Positions 1 to 21,648 of a stretch of DNA of 44,973 bases are shown here, one piece after another; the first letter of the stretch is position 1, and the number at the start of each line of letters is the position of its first letter. Where the stretch lies: positions 1 through 44,973 of the forward strand of contig CAZQBY010000010.1 of assembly GCA_964592405.1 (NCBI GenBank), given 5' to 3'. The DNA is from an uncultured archaeon (GTDB lineage Archaea > Altiarchaeota > Altiarchaeia > JAFGQM01). A program made the position numbers and the translations under genes. A model generated the notes under the pieces. That model saw only the letters and a list, made by a program, of their open reading frames with translations. It was not told where the DNA came from and ran no database searches.

Positions 1-1353
1 TTTCTCATACTTGTCACTGGGCTCGGCAATCTGCCGCCACGCCTGATAAAATCCCTGGATGAAAAGCGGTTGACTGCCATGACCGGACCCTCTCCAAGAA
101 GGCCTCCAAACTTCACCCAGTCGCCCGGCTGCGCGCCCGGAACCGGGATTATCCTGACACCTGTTGTTTTATTGTTCACCACTCCTATTGCCAGTTCGTC
201 GGCAATGATGGCAGATATTGTCTCAGCAGGGGTGTCTCCCGGAACGACAAACATGTCCAGCCCCACAGAGCAGACAGCGGTCAGCGCCTCTAGTTTGTCC
301 AGTGAGAGCGCGCCCTCCTTGACAGCTTGGGCCATACCTGCATCCTCAGTTACGGGTATGAATGTTCCACTCAGGCCACCCACATTTCCAGAGGCCATCG
401 CCCCGCCCTTCTTGACTGCATCAATGAGAAGTGCAAGGGCTGCGGTTGAGCCGTGTGCACCCACCCTTTCAACCCCCATGGCCTCTATGATGCGCGCCAC
501 GGAATCACCAACCTCGGTTGTGGAAGCCAGAGAGATATCAACTATCCCAAACGGAACACCAATACTCTTCGCCAGCTCTCTGCCTATGAGCTCCCCTGCG
601 CGTGTAATCTTGAAGGTTGTTCGCTTTATTATCTCGGACAGTTGTGTCAGGTCGCAGTCTTGGTTCTTTTCCACCACGGAGCGCACGACTCCCGGACCAC
701 TTATGCCTATGTTGAGGGAAAAATCCGGTTCGCCTACTCCATGGAATGCCCCTGCCATGAACGGATTGTCTTCCGGCGCGTTGGCAAAGACAACCAGCCG
801 CGCGCAGCCCAGACCCTTGGTTTTTTTGGAAATCTGTTTTATAACCTCGCCTATCTTGATGACTGCATCCATGTTCATGCCGGCGGTGTTGGATGCTAGG
901 TTCACGAAGCAGCATACCCGTTCTGTCTTGGAGAGAACATCCGGCATAGATTCTATTATGCGCACATCACTCTTTGTCATTCCCTTTTGAACCAGCGCGC
1001 CGTAACCCCCGATAAAGTCTATACCTGCGTCTCTGGCTGCCTCATCAAGGGTGAGGGCCAGCTCGATCACTCCGTCTTTGTCCAAGGTCTCCGCTATGAG
1101 GCTGATGGGCGTGACAGAGATGCGCTTGTTGGTTATTGGGATGCCATACTTCTTCTCCAGCATTTCGGCTTTGGAGATGAGCAGCCTGCCGTATTTTGCT
1201 ATCCTCTCACTGACATTCTCCCTAAATCTCTCCAGATTTGAATCCACACAGTCCTTGAGGTTGATGCCGAGGGTGACTGCCCTAATATCAAAGTTATAAT
1301 AGAGCGTCATCTTCACTGTTTCAAATATTTCCTCTATGCTGTAAGCCATCATC
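1..1353 (-). CDS. UPF0210 (DUF711) family protein, partial: a few C-terminal residues lie beyond the left edge. It is missing from the ORF track because it runs off the window.
   Basis: My own translation of the minus strand from ATG at 1353 gives [35 protein letters not shown]...[33 protein letters not shown]. That is 451 uninterrupted codons reaching position 1, and it is typical of the UPF0210 family that pairs with ACT-domain UPF0237 proteins. The plus-strand ORF 70..990 is its low-complexity shadow. Confidence 0.8.
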
Positions 1354-1368
1354 AGCTATACTGCAAAA

Positions 1369-1647
1369 TCAGACCCTGTGCATGGATTTAAACACTTCCT
1401 CGTGCTGCAGCTGGATCTTCAGGTTCATCTCCTTTTCTACCTTCTCCATCTGCGCGCGCAGCTCATCCATGCCGGCCTTGGACTCGGAGACGTCCACAAA
1501 CATGCTCATGACAAAATAGCCCTCCATGACCTTCATTTCCACATCCTCAATGTTGATGTTGTTCTCATAGAGGACATTGGATATACGCGCAATTATGCCC
1601 TTGCGGTCTTTCCCAACAACTGTCAGAAAGCAGAGCTCCTTGACCAT
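1369..1647 (-). CDS. ACT-domain protein, UPF0237 family
   Basis: A 92-aa ORF, MVKELCFLTVVGKDRKGIIARISNVLYENNINIEDVEMKV..., with a classic ACT fold signature. It sits immediately upstream and on the same strand as the UPF0210 gene, which is the conserved pair. Confidence 0.8.
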   Translation of the reverse strand: MVKELCFLTVVGKDRKGIIARISNVLYENNINIEDVEMKVMEGYFVMSMFVDVSESKAGMDELRAQMEKVEKEMNLKIQLQHEEVFKSMHRV

Positions 1648-1696
1648 TTTTTGTTGTGATTTTTTGCCTTTGATAATAGTTAAACCTTGATAATAG

Positions 1697-2749
1697 TTAA
1701 ATCTTATACCTCAGCAGTGCGGCCACTCCTCCCAACCCCTCCAGCCTCTGCCCCGGCTCATGCTCTGAGTTGAGTATATGGAAGTCCGAGCCCGCCTGTT
1801 TGGCTTTTGATATGAGATCCTCAGTCGCCGGTCCTGAGTTATCTCTCAGTCTTTTGTCCAGAACCAGCAGGACCTCAACAGCACCCATCTCAACAGCCCT
1901 TTTGACTTCGTCTTCTCCGTAAGTTGCCAGTCTGTCCTTGGATATCTCCTCCAGAAGGCGGTCCATGAATCTGGCTTCGCGCGCTATGCGCGCGTCACTC
2001 AGCACCTTCTCCAGCTTGCTCCCCTTGAGGATTTCATTGATCCCGGGTCTCCCCTCATTGCCTGTATCTACGACCTGAAAAGCAAGTCTGCTCTTGTCTC
2101 TGGCATAATCAAAGAAATTTCTCTTCTCAAAACCCGGACCACCAAGTATGACCGTCTGGATGCCCTCTCTTCCCGCTTCCTCCTCCAAAAGATTTAGGAG
2201 TTTGGAATAGAATTGCATCTTGCGTTCATCCCTTCCGGATACATACTTGCCACCCAGGTTCTCTCTTGTATCTACATAACGTAATCCCCTGTCGCGGACC
2301 AGTGCCACTGTAGCTTCTCCATCACCGATTACACAGAGCATAACACGCGCCCTTCTGGCAGCCCTTTCCGCATCCTGCAGGTATTTGAGTTCATGGGCTG
2401 CCCACCGTTCCTTGAAAATCTCTATCCGGCTGTGTTCGCCCAGTTCAATTGTGTGGTGCGAGCCGAGGCTTATCAGGTCCTCCGGCCCCGCTTGGATGGT
2501 CCCCAGAATCCGCAGCCGGTTGGCATTCTGGTCGAACTCCGCCTTCTCCACCCTGATTGACAGCGTCATGGCCTCCTTCCGGCCCTTGTCTGCGCGCACC
2601 TTGTCGTCCTTGCTCTTGACAAGCCTCGTAGTCCTGGCCTTGACCAGGTCGCCCTCGCCTATCACCTGGCTGAGATACCAAAGGTCATCAAGGTTCTCGG
2701 CCTGAGCAACCAGGAGGCCGGTCTTCAAATCCCGCTTTATGATTTTCAT
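1697..2749 (-). CDS. pelA: Protein pelota (Dom34 homolog), mRNA surveillance and ribosome rescue
   Basis: 350 aa. The N-terminus MKIIKRDLKTG...ENLDDLWYLSQVIGEGDLV matches pelota domain 1, and the C-terminal eRF1-like domain is present. Confidence 0.85.
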   Translation of the reverse strand: MKIIKRDLKTGLLVAQAENLDDLWYLSQVIGEGDLVKARTTRLVKSKDDKVRADKGRKEAMTLSIRVEKAEFDQNANRLRILGTIQAGPEDLISLGSHHTIELGEHSRIEIFKERWAAHELKYLQDAERAARRARVMLCVIGDGEATVALVRDRGLRYVDTRENLGGKYVSGRDERKMQFYSKLLNLLEEEAGREGIQTVILGGPGFEKRNFFDYARDKSRLAFQVVDTGNEGRPGINEILKGSKLEKVLSDARIAREARFMDRLLEEISKDRLATYGEDEVKRAVEMGAVEVLLVLDKRLRDNSGPATEDLISKAKQAGSDFHILNSEHEPGQRLEGLGGVAALLRYKI

Positions 2750-2789
2750 CGCCTATGTTTTTTTGTCTTCCGGCTTTTAAATAAGGGAT

Positions 2790-3488
2790 ATGACCAAGAA
2801 GCCAGCCAATAAGCCTAAGAGAAAGCCGAGCCTTCCGCTCGGCAGAGAGTTCAGATTGATTGCCGAGGCGAGGAAAAGAGCGGCATCCGTGCTGCTAAAC
2901 CCCATTGGAAAGCGCCCTAAGGAGCCTGTCGACCCCAAGAAGGCGATAGTGAGCCACAGGGGCGATATAATACGGTCGCCGACCTTGGACGACCTGAACC
3001 AAGCCGATGCCCGCACATCTGTAATTGAGCCGGTTCCTGTAAGGCCTGGGACGCTGTGGGAGATGAGCCACCTCTTTCCAAGGAAGGAGGGCCAAACTAT
3101 CCAGTCCCACGTCCAGACCCCGCGGGAGCTGCGCCTGCATGCGCAGTTTGTGCTGCCAAGAGGGGCGAAGACCCCCGTGCTTCACCACCTCCACCTCTCC
3201 CGCGCTGGCACCAAGCCCGAGACTCATGTGGAGAGATTTGTCCTCGGCGCGGAGCGCCAGATAGGCAAGGCCCCGTGGGTCCAGGCCCATCCCATGGTTA
3301 TAACCCCTCAGGGCAAGCTGGAGGTTGACACCCACAACTTCGTCCTGATACGGGGAAAGCGCAGGGAGCTGGAGCGCCAGCTTCTGCAGGCCCTGCCCAA
3401 GGAGCCTTCCAAGCCAACTCTCATGCAGCTCTTCAGGGCCAAGGCGTACAGAGTGCTGGGCCTCAAGCCGCCTAAGAAATCTCGTTGA
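2790..3488 (+). CDS. Uncharacterised basic protein, tandem paralog 1 (K/R-rich N-terminus, conserved C-terminal domain)
   Basis: A 232-aa ORF. It shares an extended motif with the next gene: W.E..H.FPR...Q.I.SH..TPR..RLHAQFV.PR.....LHHLHLSRAGTKPETH..RFVLG...VLIRG.RR.L.R.L. Nucleotide differences between the two copies fall at synonymous third positions, including CGC versus AGG for Arg, so it is protein-coding and not an RNA. Confidence 0.6.
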   Translation: MTKKPANKPKRKPSLPLGREFRLIAEARKRAASVLLNPIGKRPKEPVDPKKAIVSHRGDIIRSPTLDDLNQADARTSVIEPVPVRPGTLWEMSHLFPRKEGQTIQSHVQTPRELRLHAQFVLPRGAKTPVLHHLHLSRAGTKPETHVERFVLGAERQIGKAPWVQAHPMVITPQGKLEVDTHNFVLIRGKRRELERQLLQALPKEPSKPTLMQLFRAKAYRVLGLKPPKKSR

Positions 3489-3552
3489 GGACCCTCTCAG
3501 CGACCTTCTCGCCAAGCAGCTCCTTCAGCCTCTTCATAGGTGTTTTTGTCTG

Positions 3553-4263
3553 TTGAGCCTTAAACAATGTCCAAAAATAGGAGCAATGTCAAAAATGGGT
3601 AAAGCCGGAAGAGGACGCAAACGTCCGCCAATGAAGAACATTTCCCTTCTCATAGACCCGGGGACCATCCGGAGGAAAAAAGATATTATCATTACCCCTT
3701 TGGGAGGAATTCCGGGGAGGGTACCAGATATAAGAAAGGCTGTGATAGACCGGAGGGGGCGTGTTGTTCCAAAAGCGACCAAGAGACTGCTTAATGAGGC
3801 CGACAGACACACGGCCGTTATGGATTATGTAGAAGCCCTCCCGGGCAACATGTGGTATGAGCTGGAGCACATCTTTCCAAGGGATAAGGAACAGTCCATA
3901 AGAAGCCACATACGCACCCCGCGCATGGTTCGGCTTCATGCTCAGTTTGTCCGTCCGCGGTTTCTTGGTGAGGAAGTTCTGCACCACCTCCATCTATCTA
4001 GGGCGGGGACCAAACCGGAAACCCATCTTGACAGGTTTGTGTTGGGGGGACAAAAGCGTATGTTTGGTAGGACCTTTACAAAAGCACATCCACTGGATAT
4101 ACAGCCAGACGGGACGCTCAGGGTGAGGACTGACCGTTATGTTCTCATCAGAGGCTCGAGAAGGTATCTAAAGAGACGGCTGGTCTCCACTCTGCCGGAG
4201 AAGAAAGGCCCGCTCCAGATTTTCAGAAAGGCAGTTTCCAGATTTCTTGGGATAAAGGATTAG
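3553..4263 (+). CDS. Uncharacterised basic protein, tandem paralog 2
   Basis: A 236-aa ORF, paralogous to 2790..3488 with an identical 15-aa core HHLHLSRAGTKPETH. Its 3' end overlaps the stop of the convergent Hel308 gene by 4 nt. Confidence 0.6.
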   Translation: MSLKQCPKIGAMSKMGKAGRGRKRPPMKNISLLIDPGTIRRKKDIIITPLGGIPGRVPDIRKAVIDRRGRVVPKATKRLLNEADRHTAVMDYVEALPGNMWYELEHIFPRDKEQSIRSHIRTPRMVRLHAQFVRPRFLGEEVLHHLHLSRAGTKPETHLDRFVLGGQKRMFGRTFTKAHPLDIQPDGTLRVRTDRYVLIRGSRRYLKRRLVSTLPEKKGPLQIFRKAVSRFLGIKD

Positions 4264-7200
4264 TCAAGTTCTCTGAGTATCCTTTCTGCAGTCTTCTCGC
4301 CCAGCAGCTCCTTCAGCTTTTCCGCCGGTATTCTCTTTATCCCCGCCTTGCCCCTGATACCCGCATTGAACAGTTTCCTCGCCCTCACGCGCCCGATGCC
4401 CTTTATCGACGCCAGCGGGATGAGCTCCTCCTTTATGCCGTGCTTCAGCCGCATCTCCAGCTTCTGCAGCTCCCTGCGCAAAGATTTGTCTGTTTTGATA
4501 TAGAGAACCAGCTCGGAGAAGGAATAGGCCAGCCAGCGGGCCGTGTCCAGCTTTATGCGCAGCAATCCGGGGGCCATGCCATAGTTCTCCAGCACCCAGT
4601 CTTCGGTCCTCTCCTCTATCCAGTCGTTCAGCATGAGCGCGGTCTTGAAGCGGTCGAGGTAGTCGGAGTCGCTCGTGTCCGTCAGGAGCTTGTCCTCCTG
4701 CTCGTAATAGAGCCCCCATATCTCGTCCTCCTCCTTCTTCCTCACGCGCAGCAGGGGGCGCAGCTCCGTCGTGGAGCACATGAAGTCCAGCAGGCCGAAG
4801 GTGTTCACCCGCTTCATCTTGTTTGGGTCTTCAAACACCTGGACGAATTCGTGGGCGGTCTCCGGGTCTATGTAGAGTTCCGAGACGCGACTCCCGAGGG
4901 GTGTGGCCACCAGCCTTTCATCCCCCGAATCCGGCTTGCCGATGTCCGAGGCGGAGACGAACAGGTCATCATCACTCGCGCCACCTTTTGACCTGATGAA
5001 GTCCCACTTCTCCAGCTGGCGCAGCACGCGGTCCACCTTCTTTTTGAACTCCCCGCCAACGCCATACTCGTAGGCGAAGAAGGTCGCCCCAAAGAAGTCC
5101 ATGAGGCTCTTCTTGTCGCGGGTGAAGCCGGAGGCTATCGACGCCAGGACATGCATGCGCAGGACCGGCTCCACGCCCAGCTGTGAGTGGATGTTCTCCG
5201 GCTGGCCGTTGATGTAGTTCTCCTCCAGGAACTGCTTCTCATACTCGTTGGCAGCCAGCAGGACCGACTCCCCCTCCCTGTCGTACTTGGGGCGGCCGGC
5301 GCGGCCGCAATTGTGGACTAAAAAACCGGACGCAATATAGTTCTCATTCCCCTCCACACCAATGTTATACACCTTGATGCCCCCCAAGAAAGCAATATTC
5401 CTCTTTCCGACAATTCTCAATTTAACCTGCTGTCCCCTATTGCGATAATATTTATCAAGATTGTGGTAGCTTTTGTATTGCGCCCCAATCTTGCATTTGA
5501 CAGGCTTTGCATATCTTGCGAAAGTCTTGATGTAATCCTTTCTGTTGAAAGAAATCAAGTAATGGGACTTCTTGAACTCTGCGCTCTTTCCCCGAATCTC
5601 AACCCTAAGGCGCCTCCTTTTGCCTTCTAACTTAGCAACAATCCCCAGTTTTAGGAGCAACTCCTGTATGCCCACGGCAAATTTCTTACTGGAAGAAACA
5701 AACAGTATCCTCTGATTGTCTGTAGTCGGAAAACGCTTGTTCTTGGTCACAGTGTATGAACCGTCACCGTCGAATACCCCCCCCAGGTATGCCCCGACCA
5801 ACTCCTTCGGGGCATTCAGAAGAAAGGGTGGCACACTAACCTTTTCACTTTTGTTCCCGAATGGGATTCCGAAATGCTCGTTCAAGACCCTGCCCAGAAG
5901 CGTATTGCCTATTTCGCATCGGCCCCCATCCCCCTTATATGACACATAAACCTTTCCCGAGACCAACCTCTCCATCACCCGCTTGCTCTTTTCGATGATA
6001 CCCCTATCGTTATTGAAGACTCGTATCTTTATGTACTCGCTTCTTGTCCTTTTGTCAACCGTTCTCTGGATGTTGCCATCAGTGGCGATTATCCCGGCCA
6101 GCCACAGGATATCCTCATCAATCCTGTCCGGGATCTTCAGGAACGAACCATAGCCCGTCTTCACACTCTTAATGTGTGCCTTTCTCTCAAGTTTTAGCAT
6201 ATCCAATAGCCTGATCGCACAGGACAGCGGCATGTTCTTAACATCCTTCTTGTAGTGGTAGATTGACTTTGGGTCGATTTCCAGCTCCTTGCCAAGCTCC
6301 TTGTCAGTTTTTCCAGTCTCTTCCTTTGCCCTCTCCAGCAGATACCCAAGCCCGCTGACAAACAACCTCCCCTTGGGAAGCAAATCTAAAAAGTCAGGAA
6401 TGTATGAATATCCTGATACATACGGATTGAAAACCACCACATCCCCGATTTTTACCTCTTCGGCGGCCCTCCAACCCCTACCGGTTCTTATGGGGTGCTC
6501 TTTGGTCAGCCTTAGCTTGTAACCTTTGTCGGTCGTCAACTCTATCAGCTCATTAGCCTTCCGCTTGAAATAATCCCGGATGGGCTTGAACTCGAGCTCT
6601 CCCATACGCACATTAAAAGATAGGACACTGCAAGCAATCCTCTCTTCGACGACTTTTCCGATGGGCAGAATTCCCTTGTCTGTGACTATCCTCTCCTCAT
6701 ACGGAAGGCACATCTGGAGGTATTCCAAGACCGGGATGTAGTCCAGCCCGAAGCCGCTGTACCGCTTGATGTCGCGTATTATCACCTTGCGCGCGGGCAT
6801 GTTCAGCCCGGCTGCCAGCGTGGGGGTTGCGGCTATGACCTTTATCCTGCCAGCCCTGAATGCCTCCTCTACCAGCGCGCGCTGCTTGTTGACCAGCCCG
6901 GCGTGGTGGAAGGCCGCGCCCCCCTTCACGGCCCGGGCCAGCCTCCTGCACTGCGCGGTGGGAGTGCTGAGCGCTTCAAGGATCTCCTGCGAGGTTTCCT
7001 CCAGCGCCTTTTTCATCCCCTTATCCAGAAGATTTTCAAACATCTCGGCGAACTTCTCGGCTACCGCCTCCGCAGACCTGCGCGAATTGACAAAGACCAG
7101 GGACTGCGCGCCCTCATCAAGAGTCTTCTTTGCCTCGGAGAACATGATGGTGGCCTTGCCTTGGACTATGCGCTGTGTCAGCTTCACAGGCCTCCAGTCG

Positions 7201-7793
7201 GAGCTGATGACCTTCGCCCCCAGCCAGTCGCCCAGCTCCTTCGCATTCCCGATTGTTGCGGACAGCCCAAGGATTTGAATATCCTGAAACATCTTTTTGA
7301 ACTTGGCTATCAGTATCTCGTAGGTAGGGCCCCTGTCTGTGGTTATGAGGTGTATCTCGTCTATGACCAATAACCGCACGTCACGGAACCAGTTGGGGCG
7401 CGAGCGCAGGATGGAGTCGCACTTCTCCGCTGTGGCTATGACAATATCAGCAGTGTTCCTCTGGGGGAGAAATTTGGAGTCCAGGTCTCCCATCTGGAGA
7501 TCCACGCGAAAGCCAAGCTTTTCCCATTTCTTAAAATCCTCATACTTCTCACTCGCCAGCGCGCGCAGCGGTACTATGTAAACCACCTGCCCGCCCTGTC
7601 TCATGGCGCTGAGCGCGGCCAGTTCGGCGATGACTGTCTTGCCGGATGCCGTCGGCGTGGAAACCACGAGTGACTCCCCATCCATGACTCCTGCCTTGAC
7701 GGCCTGCTCCTGCGGCGGGAAGAGTATTTCAATACCCTCACTCCTGAAAATCTCTTCTGCTTTCCTGTTCAGCCCCAAATCCGAAATCTTCAC
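4260..7793 (-). CDS. hel308: Hel308 (Hjm/Ski2-like) DNA helicase carrying one intein
   Basis: 1177 aa. The N-terminus LFPPQEQAVKAGVMDGESLVVSTPTASGKTVIAELA is the Hel308 Q-motif plus Walker A, and DEIH is present. Motif VI is split as ...IPVLEYLQM / intein / CGRAGRPKYDREGE, followed by the winged-helix and HhH C-terminal domains. The start appears to be GTG. Confidence 0.9.
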   Translation of the reverse strand: MKISDLGLNRKAEEIFRSEGIEILFPPQEQAVKAGVMDGESLVVSTPTASGKTVIAELAALSAMRQGGQVVYIVPLRALASEKYEDFKKWEKLGFRVDLQMGDLDSKFLPQRNTADIVIATAEKCDSILRSRPNWFRDVRLLVIDEIHLITTDRGPTYEILIAKFKKMFQDIQILGLSATIGNAKELGDWLGAKVISSDWRPVKLTQRIVQGKATIMFSEAKKTLDEGAQSLVFVNSRRSAEAVAEKFAEMFENLLDKGMKKALEETSQEILEALSTPTAQCRRLARAVKGGAAFHHAGLVNKQRALVEEAFRAGRIKVIAATPTLAAGLNMPARKVIIRDIKRYSGFGLDYIPVLEYLQMCLPYEERIVTDKGILPIGKVVEERIACSVLSFNVRMGELEFKPIRDYFKRKANELIELTTDKGYKLRLTKEHPIRTGRGWRAAEEVKIGDVVVFNPYVSGYSYIPDFLDLLPKGRLFVSGLGYLLERAKEETGKTDKELGKELEIDPKSIYHYKKDVKNMPLSCAIRLLDMLKLERKAHIKSVKTGYGSFLKIPDRIDEDILWLAGIIATDGNIQRTVDKRTRSEYIKIRVFNNDRGIIEKSKRVMERLVSGKVYVSYKGDGGRCEIGNTLLGRVLNEHFGIPFGNKSEKVSVPPFLLNAPKELVGAYLGGVFDGDGSYTVTKNKRFPTTDNQRILFVSSSKKFAVGIQELLLKLGIVAKLEGKRRRLRVEIRGKSAEFKKSHYLISFNRKDYIKTFARYAKPVKCKIGAQYKSYHNLDKYYRNRGQQVKLRIVGKRNIAFLGGIKVYNIGVEGNENYIASGFLVHNCGRAGRPKYDREGESVLLAANEYEKQFLEENYINGQPENIHSQLGVEPVLRMHVLASIASGFTRDKKSLMDFFGATFFAYEYGVGGEFKKKVDRVLRQLEKWDFIRSKGGASDDDLFVSASDIGKPDSGDERLVATPLGSRVSELYIDPETAHEFVQVFEDPNKMKRVNTFGLLDFMCSTTELRPLLRVRKKEEDEIWGLYYEQEDKLLTDTSDSDYLDRFKTALMLNDWIEERTEDWVLENYGMAPGLLRIKLDTARWLAYSFSELVLYIKTDKSLRRELQKLEMRLKHGIKEELIPLASIKGIGRVRARKLFNAGIRGKAGIKRIPAEKLKELLGEKTAERILRELD
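5310..6710 (-). mobile_element. Intein with LAGLIDADG homing-endonuclease domain inserted in Hel308 motif VI (about 467 aa; boundaries +/-3 nt)
   Basis: It begins with Cys (CLPYEERIVTDKGILPIG, block A) and ends GFLVHN, immediately followed by Cys of the C-extein (CGRAGRP). Two LAGLIDADG motifs are present, LWLAGIIATDGNI and LVGAYLGGVFDGDGSY. The flanking exteins rejoin into the canonical Hel308 QM-GRAGRP sequence. Confidence 0.8.
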
Positions 7794-7828
7794 AGCTTTT
7801 ATTTATCTCACCTACAATTAAAGCCACA

Positions 7829-8503
7829 ATGAGAACTCCTGCCATAATCCTAAACTTCAAGACGTATAAAGAAGCCACTGGCAAGGCAGCTATCAGATTG
7901 GCAAAGATGTGCGATGAGGTCGCGAAAGAGAAGGGTGCTGAGATTGTCGTCTGCCCGCAGCTGGCCGACTGCCAGAAGATTGCTGAGTCCGTGGATATCC
8001 CGGTGTTTGCTCAGCATCTTGATGACATCGACCCGGGCAGCCACACGGGTTGGGTGCTGATAGACTCGCTGGTTGAGATAGGCCTGGCGGGCTCGCTGGT
8101 CAACCACTCCGAGCACCGGATAGGAAGAGAAAAGATAGCAGGAGCCGTCAAGCGCCTCAGAAAGGCAAAAATGACCAGTGTCGTCTGCACGCGCGATGTC
8201 CAAGAAACAGCGGAGTTATCAGACCTCAAGCCAGATTTCCTCGCTATCGAACCACCGGAGCTTATAGGATCTGGAATCTCGGTATCGACTGCCCGGCCGG
8301 AGGTTGTTACAGGCGCTGTGAGCGCTGCCAGGAAAAATGTGCCTGTCCTCTGCGGAGCCGGAATCACAAAGGGAGTTGATGTCAAAAAGGCCCTAGAACT
8401 GGGTGCGAAGGGCGTCCTGCTGGCTTCGGGAGTAATCAAGGCTGAAGATCCAAAAAAGGTCCTGAGCGAACTGGCAAGTTATATGTTGGCATCACAGGTC
8501 TGA
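7829..8503 (+). CDS. tpiA: Triosephosphate isomerase (archaeal short type)
   Basis: 224 aa with IILNFKTYKEATG, NHSEHR and EPPELIGSG motifs. Confidence 0.9.
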   Translation: MRTPAIILNFKTYKEATGKAAIRLAKMCDEVAKEKGAEIVVCPQLADCQKIAESVDIPVFAQHLDDIDPGSHTGWVLIDSLVEIGLAGSLVNHSEHRIGREKIAGAVKRLRKAKMTSVVCTRDVQETAELSDLKPDFLAIEPPELIGSGISVSTARPEVVTGAVSAARKNVPVLCGAGITKGVDVKKALELGAKGVLLASGVIKAEDPKKVLSELASYMLASQV

Positions 8504-9969: not shown

Positions 9970-10977
9970 ATGGCCAAGAGGAGATCCGGATATGTAAAAA
10001 TAAAACCCCCAACTGAACCACTCCCAAAATCAAAAAAGGAGAGCCGGATAATCATAGAGGGCCAGAGGAAGCCGCTCACCATGTCACAGACACTCATTGC
10101 CTTCCTCATAGCGGTGATAATCTTCCTCTTTTTCAAGAGCATGGGTTTTGCACAGGAGGTTTACCTACTTCTGGCCGGAATATTCTTTATTTTGAGTATT
10201 TTCCTGTTTGGATCTATTGTGTTTTTGGAGACATACGAACGGGCAGTTGTGCAGAGATACGGACGATTCAACAGGGTTGCAGGGCCGGGCTGGGCAATCA
10301 TACTCCCGGTTATTGAAACCTACAACATAGTTGACATGCGTATCAAGACGCTGGATCTCTTGGGTTATGAGGCCATCACCAAGGACAACATCCGCCTCTA
10401 TCTGGACATTGTTGTCTATGCTAAGATAATTGATCCCTACAAGGCGGTGCTTGAAGTAAAGGATGTCAATACAGCCATTCTCACCTTTCTGAAATCCATC
10501 ACTAGGGAGACTGTGGGTAACCTAACTGCGGAGGAGGTTATATCCAATATTGCCAAGGTCAACGAGCTGTTGACTGGTGAGCGAGAGAGACTGAAAGAGG
10601 AATGGGGAGTTGACCTTATCTCGGTGGAGATACAGGAAATCACGCTTCCGGGAAGAGTCCAGGAGAGTATGCATGACCTCAGGTCAGCTGAGTATCAGCG
10701 GCAGGTCATTGAACAGAGGGCCTTTGCCCGTGAGGCCCTCATTAATGCGATACAGAGGGCGGCCAGTAAACTGGACAATCCCACACTGTCATATATGTAT
10801 CTTGAAGCGTTGAAGAAGGTCGCGGACGGAAAGGCTACCAAGCTTATATTCCCAATGGAGCTGACCCGGTTGGCTGAGTCGGTATCCAAGAACTTCGGCG
10901 CCGACAAGGACAAATTCCTGCAGGATATCATCAAAGCCTACCAGGAAACAGTGGCCAAGGATATCCCCAAGAAATGA
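9970..10977 (+). CDS. SPFH/band-7 (stomatin/prohibitin-like) membrane protein
   Basis: 335 aa. There is an N-terminal TM segment, then ETYERAVVQRYGRFNRVAGPGWAIILPVIE and an SPFH core followed by a coiled-coil tail. Confidence 0.85.
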   Translation: MAKRRSGYVKIKPPTEPLPKSKKESRIIIEGQRKPLTMSQTLIAFLIAVIIFLFFKSMGFAQEVYLLLAGIFFILSIFLFGSIVFLETYERAVVQRYGRFNRVAGPGWAIILPVIETYNIVDMRIKTLDLLGYEAITKDNIRLYLDIVVYAKIIDPYKAVLEVKDVNTAILTFLKSITRETVGNLTAEEVISNIAKVNELLTGERERLKEEWGVDLISVEIQEITLPGRVQESMHDLRSAEYQRQVIEQRAFAREALINAIQRAASKLDNPTLSYMYLEALKKVADGKATKLIFPMELTRLAESVSKNFGADKDKFLQDIIKAYQETVAKDIPKK

Positions 10978-10987
10978 TTTCTTCAAG

Positions 10988-11554
10988 ATGGCCAAGCCAA
11001 GTTACCCAATGATAGTGCCATTGCCAAAGCTTTTGATGGCTGTTTTCGGAATTCCGGAGGAGCGGGCCAATATCCTGATGAAACGCCATGGTTCTTATGC
11101 CCTCCGGATGCTGGCAATAAACGATTTTTGGCTGTGGCCACGGCCGGGAGGGTTTTCATACCTCTGCTTGGAACCTTGGCAGAGACACAGCACTGAAACA
11201 ATAGTGGCAGCCTATCTCAACAAGCCAGGCAGGGTCCGAAGCTTTGCCAATAAAGCAGCCAAACTCCTTCACAGCGCCAAGGAGGAACTTCCCGGAGGAG
11301 AAAACAGGCGTATGTATTCCCAATGGATGCGCGCCCATCGCCATATTGCCAAGAGACCGAAAAAGCTAATCCGGGCTATGGAGGAGCTGAGAGCCGAAGT
11401 AAATAACACACCAATTGAACATAGGGAGGCTAACAGCAGGATGGCCCGACAGTGGTTGCATCAGGTTGGCAGGACGGAATTGCTCCTGAGAATAGAACGT
11501 ATGCACGGGGGGCGAGGGAGCGGCGGACATGGAAAAAGGAAACCCGAGAAATGA
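10988..11554 (+). CDS. Hypothetical protein (uncertain; R/W/H-rich)
   Basis: This is the only long ORF in the 620-nt gap between the SPFH gene and trpB. Its composition is atypical, with no recognisable motif and no NfeD-like features. Confidence 0.3.
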   Translation: MAKPSYPMIVPLPKLLMAVFGIPEERANILMKRHGSYALRMLAINDFWLWPRPGGFSYLCLEPWQRHSTETIVAAYLNKPGRVRSFANKAAKLLHSAKEELPGGENRRMYSQWMRAHRHIAKRPKKLIRAMEELRAEVNNTPIEHREANSRMARQWLHQVGRTELLLRIERMHGGRGSGGHGKRKPEK

Positions 11555-14534: not shown

Positions 14535-17500
14535 ATGCAGATAACACGAGACGACCTCATAAAACACCAGCTGAACTCCTATAATGATTTTGTCAACAAT
14601 GTCATGCAGGAGATAGTCGATGAGACGGGCATTATCGATACAAGAATACCAAACTTCCAGATAAAGTTCGGAAAGATATCCCTAAAAAAGCCCGACACAA
14701 AGGAGATGGACTCTACGGTCCACCGCATAACGCCAAATGATGCCCGTCTGAGGAATATGACCTATTCGGGTAAACTGGTTCTGGAAATTATAGGGGTGCA
14801 GGACGGAATTGAAAAAACACCCATAAATGCAGTCATAGGCGAATTCCCGATAATGGTCAAGAGCGACTACTGCTGGCTCACTGGTCTAAATGAAAAGGAG
14901 TTAGCTGAGCTGGGCGAGGACCCAAAGGACTTTGGGGGATACTTCATAATCAACGGAAGGGAGCGGGTGGTAATCATACTGGAGGACTTGGCCCCCAATA
15001 CCATCATTACCAGTCTTGATGAGGTAGCCGGCAAGGATAACATCACGGTCAAGGTCTTCTCCACCCGCCAGGGTTTCAGGAGCAGGATTGCTGTCACAAG
15101 GAAAGAAATGAGAACAGGTGAAACCCTCTATGTCTCTTTCCCCGGTCTGCCACGCATACTTCCGTTGTCTGTTGTCCTTCGTGCGCTGGGTCTCAAAGAC
15201 GACCAGATACTTGAGCTTTTCGAGGACGAGGAAAAGCCGGAGATGAAGGTCAATCTGGAGCTGTGTAAGGTCAAAAATCAGCGGGAGGCACTCGAATATA
15301 TAGGTGTCCGTGTTGCTGTGGGCCAGAGGAAGGAGATACAGGTCACTCGTGCGCAGCAGGTCCTTGACCTGTTCCTGCTGCCACATATAGGGAACGAGCC
15401 AGAACTAAGGCAGAGGAAGGCAATCTTCCTGACCCGCATGGCGAAGAGAGCCATCGAGATTGATCTTGGAACAAGAGATGTGGATGACAAGGACCATTAT
15501 ATGAACAAGCGACTGAAGATAGCTGGTGACATGATGGAAGAACTCTTCAGAACCGCATTTGGCGCACTTGTAAAGGACATCAAATATCAGACCGAAAAGA
15601 ACTATGCCCGGAGAAAGCGCATTGATCTGAGGCGTGCCGTCCGTCCGGAGGTCTTCACAAAGAGGGTTATGTATTCACTCGCCACCGGGAACTGGCCCGG
15701 CGGGAGGACCGGTATTTCACAGATACTGGATCGCACTAATTATATAGCAGTTTTGGCCCATCTCAGAAGGGTTACATCCACCCTTTCACGCACTCATCCG
15801 CATTTTGAGGCCAGGGACCTCCATGGTACCCATTGGGGCAGGTTCTGCCCCTGTGAAACTCCTGAAGGACAGAACTGTGGCTTGGTCAAGAATCTGGCCC
15901 TGTCTGCGCACATAACCCGGGAACAGGACCCGCGGGTAGTCGAGCAGATGCTAAAGGAGTTCAATGTTGAGAGCGGAAAATACGTCATTGAGGTTAATGG
16001 CAGGATAATTGGTTTTACAAACAACCCAAAAAGTGTTACAAACAAGATAAAAACCCTGAGAAGACAGGGCAAGCTCTCAAATGACATCAATATAGGGGTG
16101 TTTGAGGATAACAAGGAGATACAGATATTTTGTGACAAGGGCCGTGTGCAAAGACCGCTGGCAATAGTGGAGAACGGAAAGCCACTAATCTCAAGGGCTG
16201 AGCTAGAAGGCATTCTAAGAGGTGAGATAAACATTGATAAGCTTATTAAAGAAGGCAAGGTGGAGTATCTTGATTCTCTAGAAGAGGAAAACGCCTATAC
16301 AGCTATTGACATCAAAGAGCTCACTCCCCAACACACTCACCTAGAGCTGGACCCCTCGCTAATAGTAGGTGTTGGAGCATCGATAATACCCTATTCGGAA
16401 TATAACTCCTCACCTAGGATCACTATGGGGGCAGCCATGAGCAAGCAGTCCCTTGGCTATTATGCCACCAATTTTGTATCCAGAACAGATACCCGGGCGA
16501 ATCTGCTGCATTATGTCCAGAAGCCCATAGTCACAACACATGGTATGAAAATATCAGGCTATGAAGAACTCCCGAGTGGACAAAACTTCATTGTCGCTAT
16601 CATGAGCTATGAGGGCTACAACCTTGAAGATGCCTTGATATTCAATCAGTCCTCTGTAGAGAGGGGTTTGGGGATCTCCACTTTTTTTAGGACCTATGAA
16701 ATAGAAGAGAAGCGATATCCCGGTGGCCAGAAGGACAAGTTCCAGCTGGTTGGAGAGGACGTTGAGGGATACAGGGGAGCGGAAGCATATCGCTTCCTGG
16801 ATGAAACTGGTGTTATTGATCCGGGCATAGAGGTTGGCCCATCTGATGTTCTTGTGGGTAAATCCTCACCCCCGCGATTCCTGGAGGAGATAGGTGAGTT
16901 TGGGCTTCTGGGAGACAAGAGAAGAGAGTCTTCTCTTTGTGTCAGACCTAGGGAATCCGGTATTGTTGATCAGGTTATCATGACCCTTCTTGATAACGGC
17001 AACCGCTTGGTCAAGGTTCGTGTAAGAAAGGGGCGCTATCCGGAACTTGGGGACAAATTTGCTTCAAGGCATGGCCAGAAAGGCGTTATCGGCCTGCTTG
17101 TACGCCATGAGGATATGCCCTTTACTGGAAGCGGCATAGTTCCAGATCTGATTATAAATCCACATGCCATCCCGTCAAGAATGACTGTTGGTCATCTGCT
17201 TGAGATGATTGGTGCAAAGGTTGGGGCCATGGAAGGGAGGCAGGTAGATGGCACAGTATTCAAGGGAGAGAAGGAAAAAGACTTGCGTGAAGCTCTCAAG
17301 AAAGCAGGCTTTAAAGCTAGTGGTAAAGAGGTTATGTATGACGGTAAGACCGGCAGGAAGTTCGATTGTGAGATATACATAGCTCCCATATACTATCAAA
17401 AACTCCATCACATGGCCTCGGGCAAGATGCATGCGCGCTCTAGAGGGCCGGTTACGCTTCTTACTCACCAGCCTACAGAGGGCCGGGCCAATGAAGGGGG

Positions 17501-17785
17501 GCTGAGGTTCGGAGAGATGGAAAGAGATTGTCTTATAGGCCACGGGGCATCCCTCCTCCTCAGTGAACGACTGGTTGAGGAATCTGATCCATCTGAGATA
17601 CTTGTCTGTCCGGAGTGTGGAGAAGAGGCTGTAAGTGATGTTTCATCCGGCAAGTTTACATGTCCGGTATGTGGTGAAATAAGCCCTGTCTTGGTGAGGG
17701 TTCCACATGCGTTCAAACTCCTCTTGGATGAAATCAAGTCGATGTGTATCTCTACTGCCATCCTGACCGAGGAAAAGACGAAAAA

Positions 17786-17789
<4 letters not shown>
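14535..17789 (+). CDS. rpoB: DNA-directed RNA polymerase subunit B, unsplit (no B'/B'' division)
   Basis: 1084 aa with GGYFIINGRERVVI, the C-terminal zinc motif CPECGEE...CPVCGE, and the rest of the Rpb2 hallmarks. Confidence 0.95.

Positions 17790-21648
<3,859 letters not shown>

Follow-up and report, generated by a model that had tools for sequence, protein, structure and literature searches.

What are the two strongly basic genes that lie in tandem between the genes for a Pelota-type ribosome-rescue factor and a Hel308/Ski2-type helicase on a contig of an uncultured archaeon (CAZQBY010000010.1; the window below is the whole stretch analyzed, 44,973 nucleotides), and what may their products do? 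The two genes, g1 and g2, are copies of an undescribed, very small protein family confined to one archaeal clade. The family, for which the name X is used here, numbers about 11 sequences among 15 billion proteins, with homologs in about 8 other genomes. Its members reside, in 8 of 9 contexts, on the strand opposite to their neighbours, where they lie between the pelota promoter and the stop of a gene for a Hel308-type helicase. The favoured reading, to which a probability of about 0.4 is given, is that X acts without catalysis, as a binder of nucleic acid (RNA or DNA) or as an adaptor, and is not an enzyme. Loci compared with the window are indicated as L001 to L015, family proteins by P-numbers (P0002 in L002, P0006 in L007, P0007 in L008). 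The two genes, and the motif which they share, are as follows:

2790-3488, plus strand: g1, 232 amino acids (aa), ATG start; pelota-proximal copy of the orphan family X, GC-rich outlier
3553-4263, plus strand: g2, 236 aa when read from TTG 3553; helicase-proximal copy, likely start ATG 3586 or 3595
3177-3227, plus strand: VLHHLHLSRAGTKPETH in g1, residues 130-146; signature strand and loop of the family
3976-4026, plus strand: VLHHLHLSRAGTKPETH in g2, the same motif, within repeat D1

A first-pass annotation made from the sequence had described a tandem pair of basic paralogous genes with a strictly conserved core, and both points were confirmed. The products of the two open reading frames (ORFs) are 47% identical (66% positives over 199 aa, E=5e-61), have isoelectric points (pI) of 11.2 and 11.5, contain 46-51 lysine plus arginine residues and lack cysteine; five other homologs computed are likewise basic and Cys-free, pI ranging from 10.4 to 11.8 across the members computed. 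A shared C-terminal domain of about 130 aa had been noted. Similarity is not limited to this region, but spans nearly the full protein, the first ~30 residues excepted. All 17 residues of VLHHLHLSRAGTKPETH are identical in g1 and g2, though 12 of the 17 codons differ, and the motif lies within repeat D1 (3177-3241 vs. 3976-4040, 74% nucleotide identity). The statement that substitutions between the copies are overwhelmingly synonymous holds for the core motif, the synonymous pairs cited there included, but not for the genes as a whole: 56% of the aligned residues differ, and a comparison of the dN/dS type, one of the checks proposed at first pass, gave proportions of nonsynonymous (pN) and synonymous (pS) differences of 0.41 and 0.81, the synonymous sites being saturated. 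Differences at the three codon positions number 102, 79 and 157. This pattern, together with the codon-shuffled VLHHLHLSRAGTKPETH, identifies the plus-strand frame as the coding frame and places the core under strong purifying selection; the claim that both copies are kept as proteins is thus borne out for the core. Two long antisense ORFs (2895-3515 and 3589-3993) are ruled out as real genes by the codon-position pattern, and are regarded as by-products.

The start of g2 is uncertain, ATG 3586 or 3595 being the likely candidates. Gene calls in databases are 210 aa long (ENA) or 222 aa long (NCBI and others). The L002 ortholog starts at a codon whose counterpart in the window is the ATG at 3567, but one extra A in an A-run (window 3567-3586 vs. 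L002 311-345) takes this ATG out of the frame of g2. The extra A denotes either a real 5' truncation or a homopolymer error in the assembly. At the other end, the stop of g2 overlaps convergently the stop codon of the helicase gene.

That g1 and g2 are non-functional, either chance ORFs or decaying spacer pseudogenes, is hardly credible. The family is tiny and unnamed, X is missing in some relatives, and the upstream ATG of g2 is frameshifted, all features which would suit such a view. Against it stand the excess of third-position differences and the persistence of the 17-residue run through 12 synonymous codon changes; homologs with 26-37% identity are still recognisable in the same slot, and a confident fold prediction is obtained from only 10 sequences. 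The view is effectively refuted, and g1 and g2 are genuine genes.

A GC content above that of the flanking genes had also been reported. This is true of g1 (GC 0.602, z=+3.9; third-codon-position GC, or GC3, 0.737, z=+2.8, vs. 26 other ORFs of the window), but not of g2, whose composition is typical of the window (GC 0.511, z=+0.6; GC3 0.538); the hint of foreign origin drawn from composition survives for g1 only. The first ~8 kb of the window (1-8500) are GC-richer than the rest (0.51-0.62 in most 500-nucleotide (nt) bins vs. about 0.42-0.53 over 8500-44973), and the helicase and ACT-domain genes have GC3 values of 0.71-0.74 vs. a window mean of 0.56, so that the compositional oddity extends beyond g1. 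No significant third copy of X was found elsewhere in the window by blastx or tblastn, and the derivation of X from antisense helicase, pelota or TIM sequences was rejected, the same two programs giving nothing significant.

Family X is poorly represented in all collections searched. Among 5.8 billion clusters only 4 X proteins were retrieved, the two of the window included; 8 were obtained when 1.84 billion representatives were searched exhaustively with a profile, a second profile search added no member, and scans of genome and metagenome contigs recovered only L001 and an identical copy of g2. All members are named, at most, "hypothetical protein" in all sources. No Pfam match was obtained for g1 and g2 at E<=10 (hmmscan), nor for any of 10 members at E<=1; NCBIfam gave no match for g1 and g2, PHROGs and PADLOC profiles none for X, and PDB sequences none, either by single sequence or by profile. 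No relatives of X were found on viral contigs (IMG/VR), phage records or plasmids. A known defence system and a virus or plasmid origin were accordingly set aside as identities of X. The absence of homologs beyond this genome, along with a poor predicted fold, had been named at first pass as one of two outcomes that would refute its proposal; homologs do exist elsewhere, as said, and the fold is confidently predicted.

The taxonomic distribution, a further check proposed at that stage, proved narrow, all of the about 11 sequences falling in one rarely sampled archaeal clade. Pelota relatives with at least 55% identity make up only about 23 clusters, one of which is labelled Candidatus Altiarchaeota, and the next relatives, at ~40%, belong to Hydrothermarchaeales; as a weak hint, the host clade is possibly related to Altiarchaeota. 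The occupant of the slot in L015 (197 aa) is probably a divergent member of X. It was detected at E=5e-4 by hmmsearch against that single target, and by hhalign at E=0.0015 with a probability of 17%; the alignment is colinear, and HLFG, WHLHL and DRFxV motifs are common to it and X.

The borders of the slot in the window, and the spacer that separates g1 from pelota, are listed below:

1697-2749, minus strand: pelota (ribosome-rescue factor), divergent from g1; left border of the slot
2750-2789: divergent spacer of 40 nt between the start codons of pelota and g1; contains the T-rich box TGTTTTTTTG and TTTTAAATA
4260-7793, minus strand: intein-containing Hel308/Ski2-type helicase gene, in convergent overlap with g2; forms the right border of the slot

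The best PDB match of the window pelota is P. furiosus Pelota (3j15, E=1.6e-70), and the same gene in L011 features the Pfam domains Pelota_N, eRF1_2 and eRF1_3. The helicase orthologs in L010 and L013 feature DEAD, Helicase_dom4_arc, Intein_splicing and LAGLIDADG_3 domains. The T-rich box and the TATA-like box are invariant in four upstream regions; TTTTAAATA, read on the minus strand, is the putative TATA box of pelota. The same arrangement, with pelota and X divergent and X and helicase convergent, is found in the window, L001, L002/3, L004/5, L007, L009, L010 and L015. The start codons of X and pelota are 31-40 nt apart in most loci, and the 3' end of X overlaps convergently the helicase stop by 4-68 nt in the loci with reported coordinates, L015 having instead a 13-nt gap. 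The exception is P0007 (L008 1-2353), which resides outside the slot, downstream of a gene similar to the PolD small subunit (DNA_pol_E_B, Metallophos, OB-fold) and of a 96-aa ORF.

L013 and L014, whose Pelota is ~70% identical to that of the window, lack X altogether, and their helicase and pelota genes are co-directional and 31-32 nt apart. The short spacer of these relatives (TTATTTAAG...ATG) is homologous to the pelota-proximal spacer of the window; X therefore occupies precisely the stretch that separates the helicase stop codon from the TATA-like box of pelota. In a Pelota tree, an approximate neighbour-joining tree without bootstrap support, L007 (the deepest branch), L010 and the group formed by the window, L001 and L005 carry X, as L015 probably does, and only the nested L013 and L014 are without it. 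The most economical reading is that X is ancestral and underwent clean losses. As it has been cleanly lost in some relatives, X is dispensable.

Other genes of the neighbourhood vary as well. Toxin-antitoxin genes (PemK, MazE-PIN and HicA) reside around the X-less slots (L013 1986-2514 and 8138-8733; L014 3030-3248), indicating that the helicase/pelota/TIM region collects small accessory genes. The helicase varies in length, being 1177 aa long in the window, 1689 aa in L001 (2001-7070), where two apparent intein/LAGLIDADG insertions are seen, and about 710 aa in L007 (8668-10809) and L015 (305-2425), for which no intein matches are listed; intein content is therefore polymorphic in the clade. 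In L007 a 245-aa gene (10808-11545) is located between helicase and TIM, with a sub-threshold match to a protein-kinase domain (E=7e-4, 19.5 bits vs. a cut-off of 31.7). The rest of the window is an ordinary archaeal chromosome, with PPDK, an XPD-like helicase, and an RNA polymerase operon (14535-21648) encoding an unsplit RpoB (1084 aa) followed by RpoA' (911 aa) and RpoA'' (383 aa). No Rfam families or tRNAs were found in the window.

How the tandem state came about can be read in part from the junction between g1 and g2, where two further elements lie:

3472-3537, minus strand: relic mini-ORF of 21 codons, MKRLKELLGEKVAERVLNEIS followed by a stop; 17 nt shared with the 3' end of g1
3538-3585: duplicated spacer copy upstream of g2, GTGTTTTTGT ... 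CCTTAAACA; both conserved boxes kept

In the relic, a pelota-type ATG leads in frame into the final 20 codons and the stop of a Hel308 gene. In a comparison with the real helicase tail (4263-4330, ending in KLKELLGEKTAERILRELD and a stop), 36 of 44 nt are identical (82%), the two segments forming repeat D2 (3486-3544 vs. 4274-4332). The copy of the pelota/X spacer directly adjoins the relic, hence the repeated unit began at the pelota start codon, comprised X and ended about 60 nt into the helicase gene. The g1/g2 pair arose by duplication or capture of this unit. The mini-ORF is intact, and far better conserved than neutral DNA of the age of the g1/g2 split should be.

The same tandem layout is found in L007 (6868-8784), where a 113-nt copy of the helicase tail (91% identical) precedes one of 63 nt that covers the pelota 5' end and spacer (84%). 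These copies lie between a 314-aa gene and P0006, the two proteins having their last 20 residues in common. The body of the 314-aa protein is not detectably homologous to X (hhalign probability 4.5%), and its membership in the family, unproven, was not accepted. The breakpoints in L007 differ from those in the window, which denotes an independent tandem event.

An old, neutrally drifting duplication in situ fits these data poorly. The relic is still 82% identical to the real tail while the synonymous sites of g1 and g2 are saturated, and g1 is a compositional outlier resembling the ortholog of the GC-richer relative L001. Moreover, when the window is compared to L002, pS is 0.20 for X (g2 3586-4260 vs. 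P0002, L002 322-1020), and 0.46 and 0.42 for the flanking pelota and helicase segments, respectively. Being about half of that of the flanks, the value for X denotes a common history more recent than theirs. Taken together, the identity of the relic, the composition of g1 and the low pS of X suggest that X alleles have been swapped between related genomes through the conserved flanks, and g1 may be an allele captured from a sister species. Two points weigh against capture. A duplication in situ, accompanied by gene conversion of the relic, would explain the tandem state equally well, and the high GC3 of the neighbouring helicase and ACT-domain genes weakens the compositional argument. An old duplication with gene conversion of the flanks is thus a possible alternative.

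X evolves 2-3 times faster than its neighbours, pelota being 80% identical where X is 44-54% identical, and 62-71% where X is 26-37%. In the closest pair (g2 and P0002) pN/pS is 0.28 in the core, about 1.1 over residues 33-90 and about 1.5 in the C-terminal part, the values above 1 resting on small counts (10-17 changes); in the same two genomes the flanks have pN/pS of 0.19-0.24.

The fold of X was predicted with AlphaFold2. The g1 model, based on an alignment of 10 sequences, has a mean predicted local distance difference test score (pLDDT) of 83.4 (five models, 81-83; core blocks 86-97), and that of g2, based on 4 sequences, a mean pLDDT of 74.5 and a predicted template modelling score of 0.72. 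In the g1 model the predicted elements are, in order, a low-confidence basic N-terminus, short strands, a helix (66-74), a strand (76-85) and a second helix (104-109). Six strands follow (112-121, 130-138, 149-158, 161-171, 177-180 and 185-188), then a helix (191-200), a low-confidence linker and a last helix (211-223). As modelled, X is made up by a disordered K/R-rich tail of ~30 residues, a globular beta-rich domain of ~170, a flexible linker and a short C-terminal helix (P...F-R). The last seven strands and the capping helix of the predicted domain have a PH/PTB-like topology, but the matches are weak, concern topology only, and feature 5-13% identity.

Conservation was monitored in 11 sequences (g1 numbering). 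G87, F96 and P209 are kept in all; H132, H133, H135, V151 and G153 in 10; P38, G58, P86, W90, L136, S137, R149, P168, G175, G189 and F215 in nine. The conserved columns are mostly G, P, F, W and V, plus an H-H-x-H-x-S cluster. The latter, set on one strand, is the sole polar cluster conserved, with one Arg on a nearby strand: no column of conserved Tyr, Asp, Glu or Lys is found across the 11 sequences, and R149 is the single Arg column to reach nine. H133, H135 and S137 are each substituted in at least one member. Close relatives form a subfamily which additionally keeps H117, H146 and H167.

On these grounds X is best regarded, tentatively, as a binding or adaptor protein. The polybasic disordered tail and the basic beta-sandwich would bind a polyanion, RNA or DNA, and the conserved C-terminal helix, borne on a flexible linker, would tether a partner. 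X is probably expressed from the compact divergent promoter region shared with pelota, and recombination across the conserved flanks would have duplicated the unit extending from the pelota start to the helicase tail, or captured it from a related genome. A functional link of X to the helicase or to Pelota is attractive but weakly supported, since the whole neighbourhood is syntenic in the clade: TIM, the ACT-domain gene and DUF711/DUF373 are syntenic too, X lies on the other strand, and P0007 is located elsewhere. Two further points weigh against a binding protein. Nucleic-acid binding is no more than suggested by a high pI and a disordered basic tail, and the His cluster, being strictly kept, could serve as a metal or active site, which leaves room for catalysis.

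Catalysis is what the first-pass annotation had in mind when suggesting a nucleic-acid-acting enzyme, and an enzyme acting on nucleic-acid phosphates, or a metallo-enzyme, with the HxH pair and further His or Arg residues of neighbouring strands as its site, might be Tpt1-like, 2H-like, HUH-like or of a new type. HxH on a beta-strand is a common metal-binding arrangement, the three histidines of the cluster are each kept in 10 of 11 members, and the closely related proteins keep three more; S137 and R149 are retained in nine of 11, and the 17-residue motif is held strictly despite saturated synonymous change. The suggestion found no support in Pfam, NCBIfam or PDB matches, no Tyr, Asp, Glu or Lys column accompanies the cluster, and H133, H135 and S137 are each replaced somewhere; an enzyme is accordingly thought improbable. 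A lipid-binding role is still less probable. Eukaryotic PH domains bind anionic lipid head groups, and X could be a peripheral membrane protein contacting them through its basic PH-like domain and polybasic tail, but the fold match is one of topology, the matched folds hold no conserved lipid-binding signature, no membrane-related gene context is seen, and a disordered K/R tail together with a pI of about 11 is seen more typically in proteins that bind nucleic acids.

The behaviour of the locus raises a different possibility, namely that X is an accessory cassette of the conflict type (defence, counter-defence or selfish), the helicase-pelota spacer being a hot spot of integration or exchange, and that its rapid change reflects an arms race and not housekeeping. 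Several data would fit: the contrast in pN/pS between the core or the flanks and the rest of X in the closest pair, the synonymous divergence of X at half of that of the flanks, which implies recent exchange, the two independent tandem events, the lack of X in the nested L013 and L014, the outlying composition of g1, and the toxin-antitoxin genes in the same neighbourhood of the X-less relatives. On the other hand, X matches no PADLOC or PHROG profile, is absent from the viral contigs, phage records and plasmids searched, consists of one gene without partners, and has a distribution that broadly tracks the pelota tree, suggesting vertical descent, while the pN/pS values above 1 come from few changes. 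This reading is unlikely, though less so than an enzyme. The most novel proposal, rather doubtful, is that X is either a new His-cluster beta-sandwich factor working physically with the Hel308-type helicase and/or Pelota in the rescue of stalled ribosomes or forks in one archaeal clade, or a new, rapidly diversifying conflict gene passed from species to species as a cassette by way of the conserved flanks. What probability remains goes to something not considered here.

If X has a real role, it would be a new domain type restricted to a poorly sampled archaeal clade, and would sit inside a tightly packed Hel308-type helicase-Pelota gene pair; Dom34 and the Ski2/ASCC3-type helicases, the eukaryotic relatives of the two neighbours, act together in the quality control of RNA and ribosomes. 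Should a helicase/Pelota factor or a conflict gene be the true answer, both the protein family and the behaviour of the locus would have no described counterpart. In any case the locus illustrates cleanly, in a natural setting, how the slot between two conserved genes can gain a small gene, duplicate it, swap it and lose it with precision, the junction relics being still readable. What is new is the protein family; uncultured archaea abound in orphan families, and practical importance is rated as moderate.

Among known systems, Tpt1/KptA (PF01885) had been noted at first pass for a faint resemblance, and 2H-phosphoesterase folds had been named for comparison; Tpt1/KptA was prudently left unassigned, and restraint was justified. 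The likeness to Tpt1 is a short string only (HLHLS in X, HVHLS in Tpt1). Tpt1 enzymes have a two-lobed fold and a catalytic Arg-His-Arg-Arg set, part of which is in the N-terminal LRH block. X lacks this block, and with R149 as the only Arg column kept in nine of 11 members does not feature the set; no member matches the PTS_2-RNA profile (Pfam, 10 members; NCBIfam, g1 and g2), no Tpt1 structure is found among the fold matches, and X is predicted to be mostly a beta-sandwich and not two-lobed. Similarly, 2H phosphoesterases of the LigT/CPDase type carry two H-x-T/S motifs on adjacent strands, of which X has one counterpart, H135-L-S137, on a beta-strand. A second motif is missing, the candidate H117-A-Q being changed to D, S, R or N in several members, and neither a Pfam match nor a 2H fold among the fold matches was obtained. 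Both identities were rejected, profiles, sequences, folds and motifs giving no support.

HUH endonucleases (IS200/IS605 TnpA, Rep, relaxases) resemble X in the H-hydrophobic-H string on a central beta-strand, H133-L-H135 falling in predicted strand 130-138, and the patchy distribution and tandem copies of X hint at mobility; such a string alone is not diagnostic of HUH proteins. X has no conserved Tyr nucleophile, the best column, at g1 position 184, containing F, Y, S, H or T. No Pfam or PHROG match (Y1_Tnp, Rep, relaxase) and no HUH fold among the fold matches were found, no terminal hairpins or element ends were identified, and duplication of host flanks accounts for the tandem junction. 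A HUH transposase or Rep protein was rejected for the lack of a conserved Tyr, of a profile match and of a fold match. As to the PH/PTB-like superfold, which includes eukaryotic PH and PTB domains and bacterial PHb (PF08000) and its relatives, no X member belongs to any of its Pfam profiles. Small basic archaeal nucleic-acid binders and lineage-specific ribosomal proteins provide the remaining comparison set. X has no sequence or fold match among them, and differs in its larger size (about 25 kDa), fast evolution, dispensability and variable copy number, but is like them in its pI of about 11, the absence of cysteine, the disordered K/R extension predicted on a compact beta-rich domain, and the restriction to one clade.

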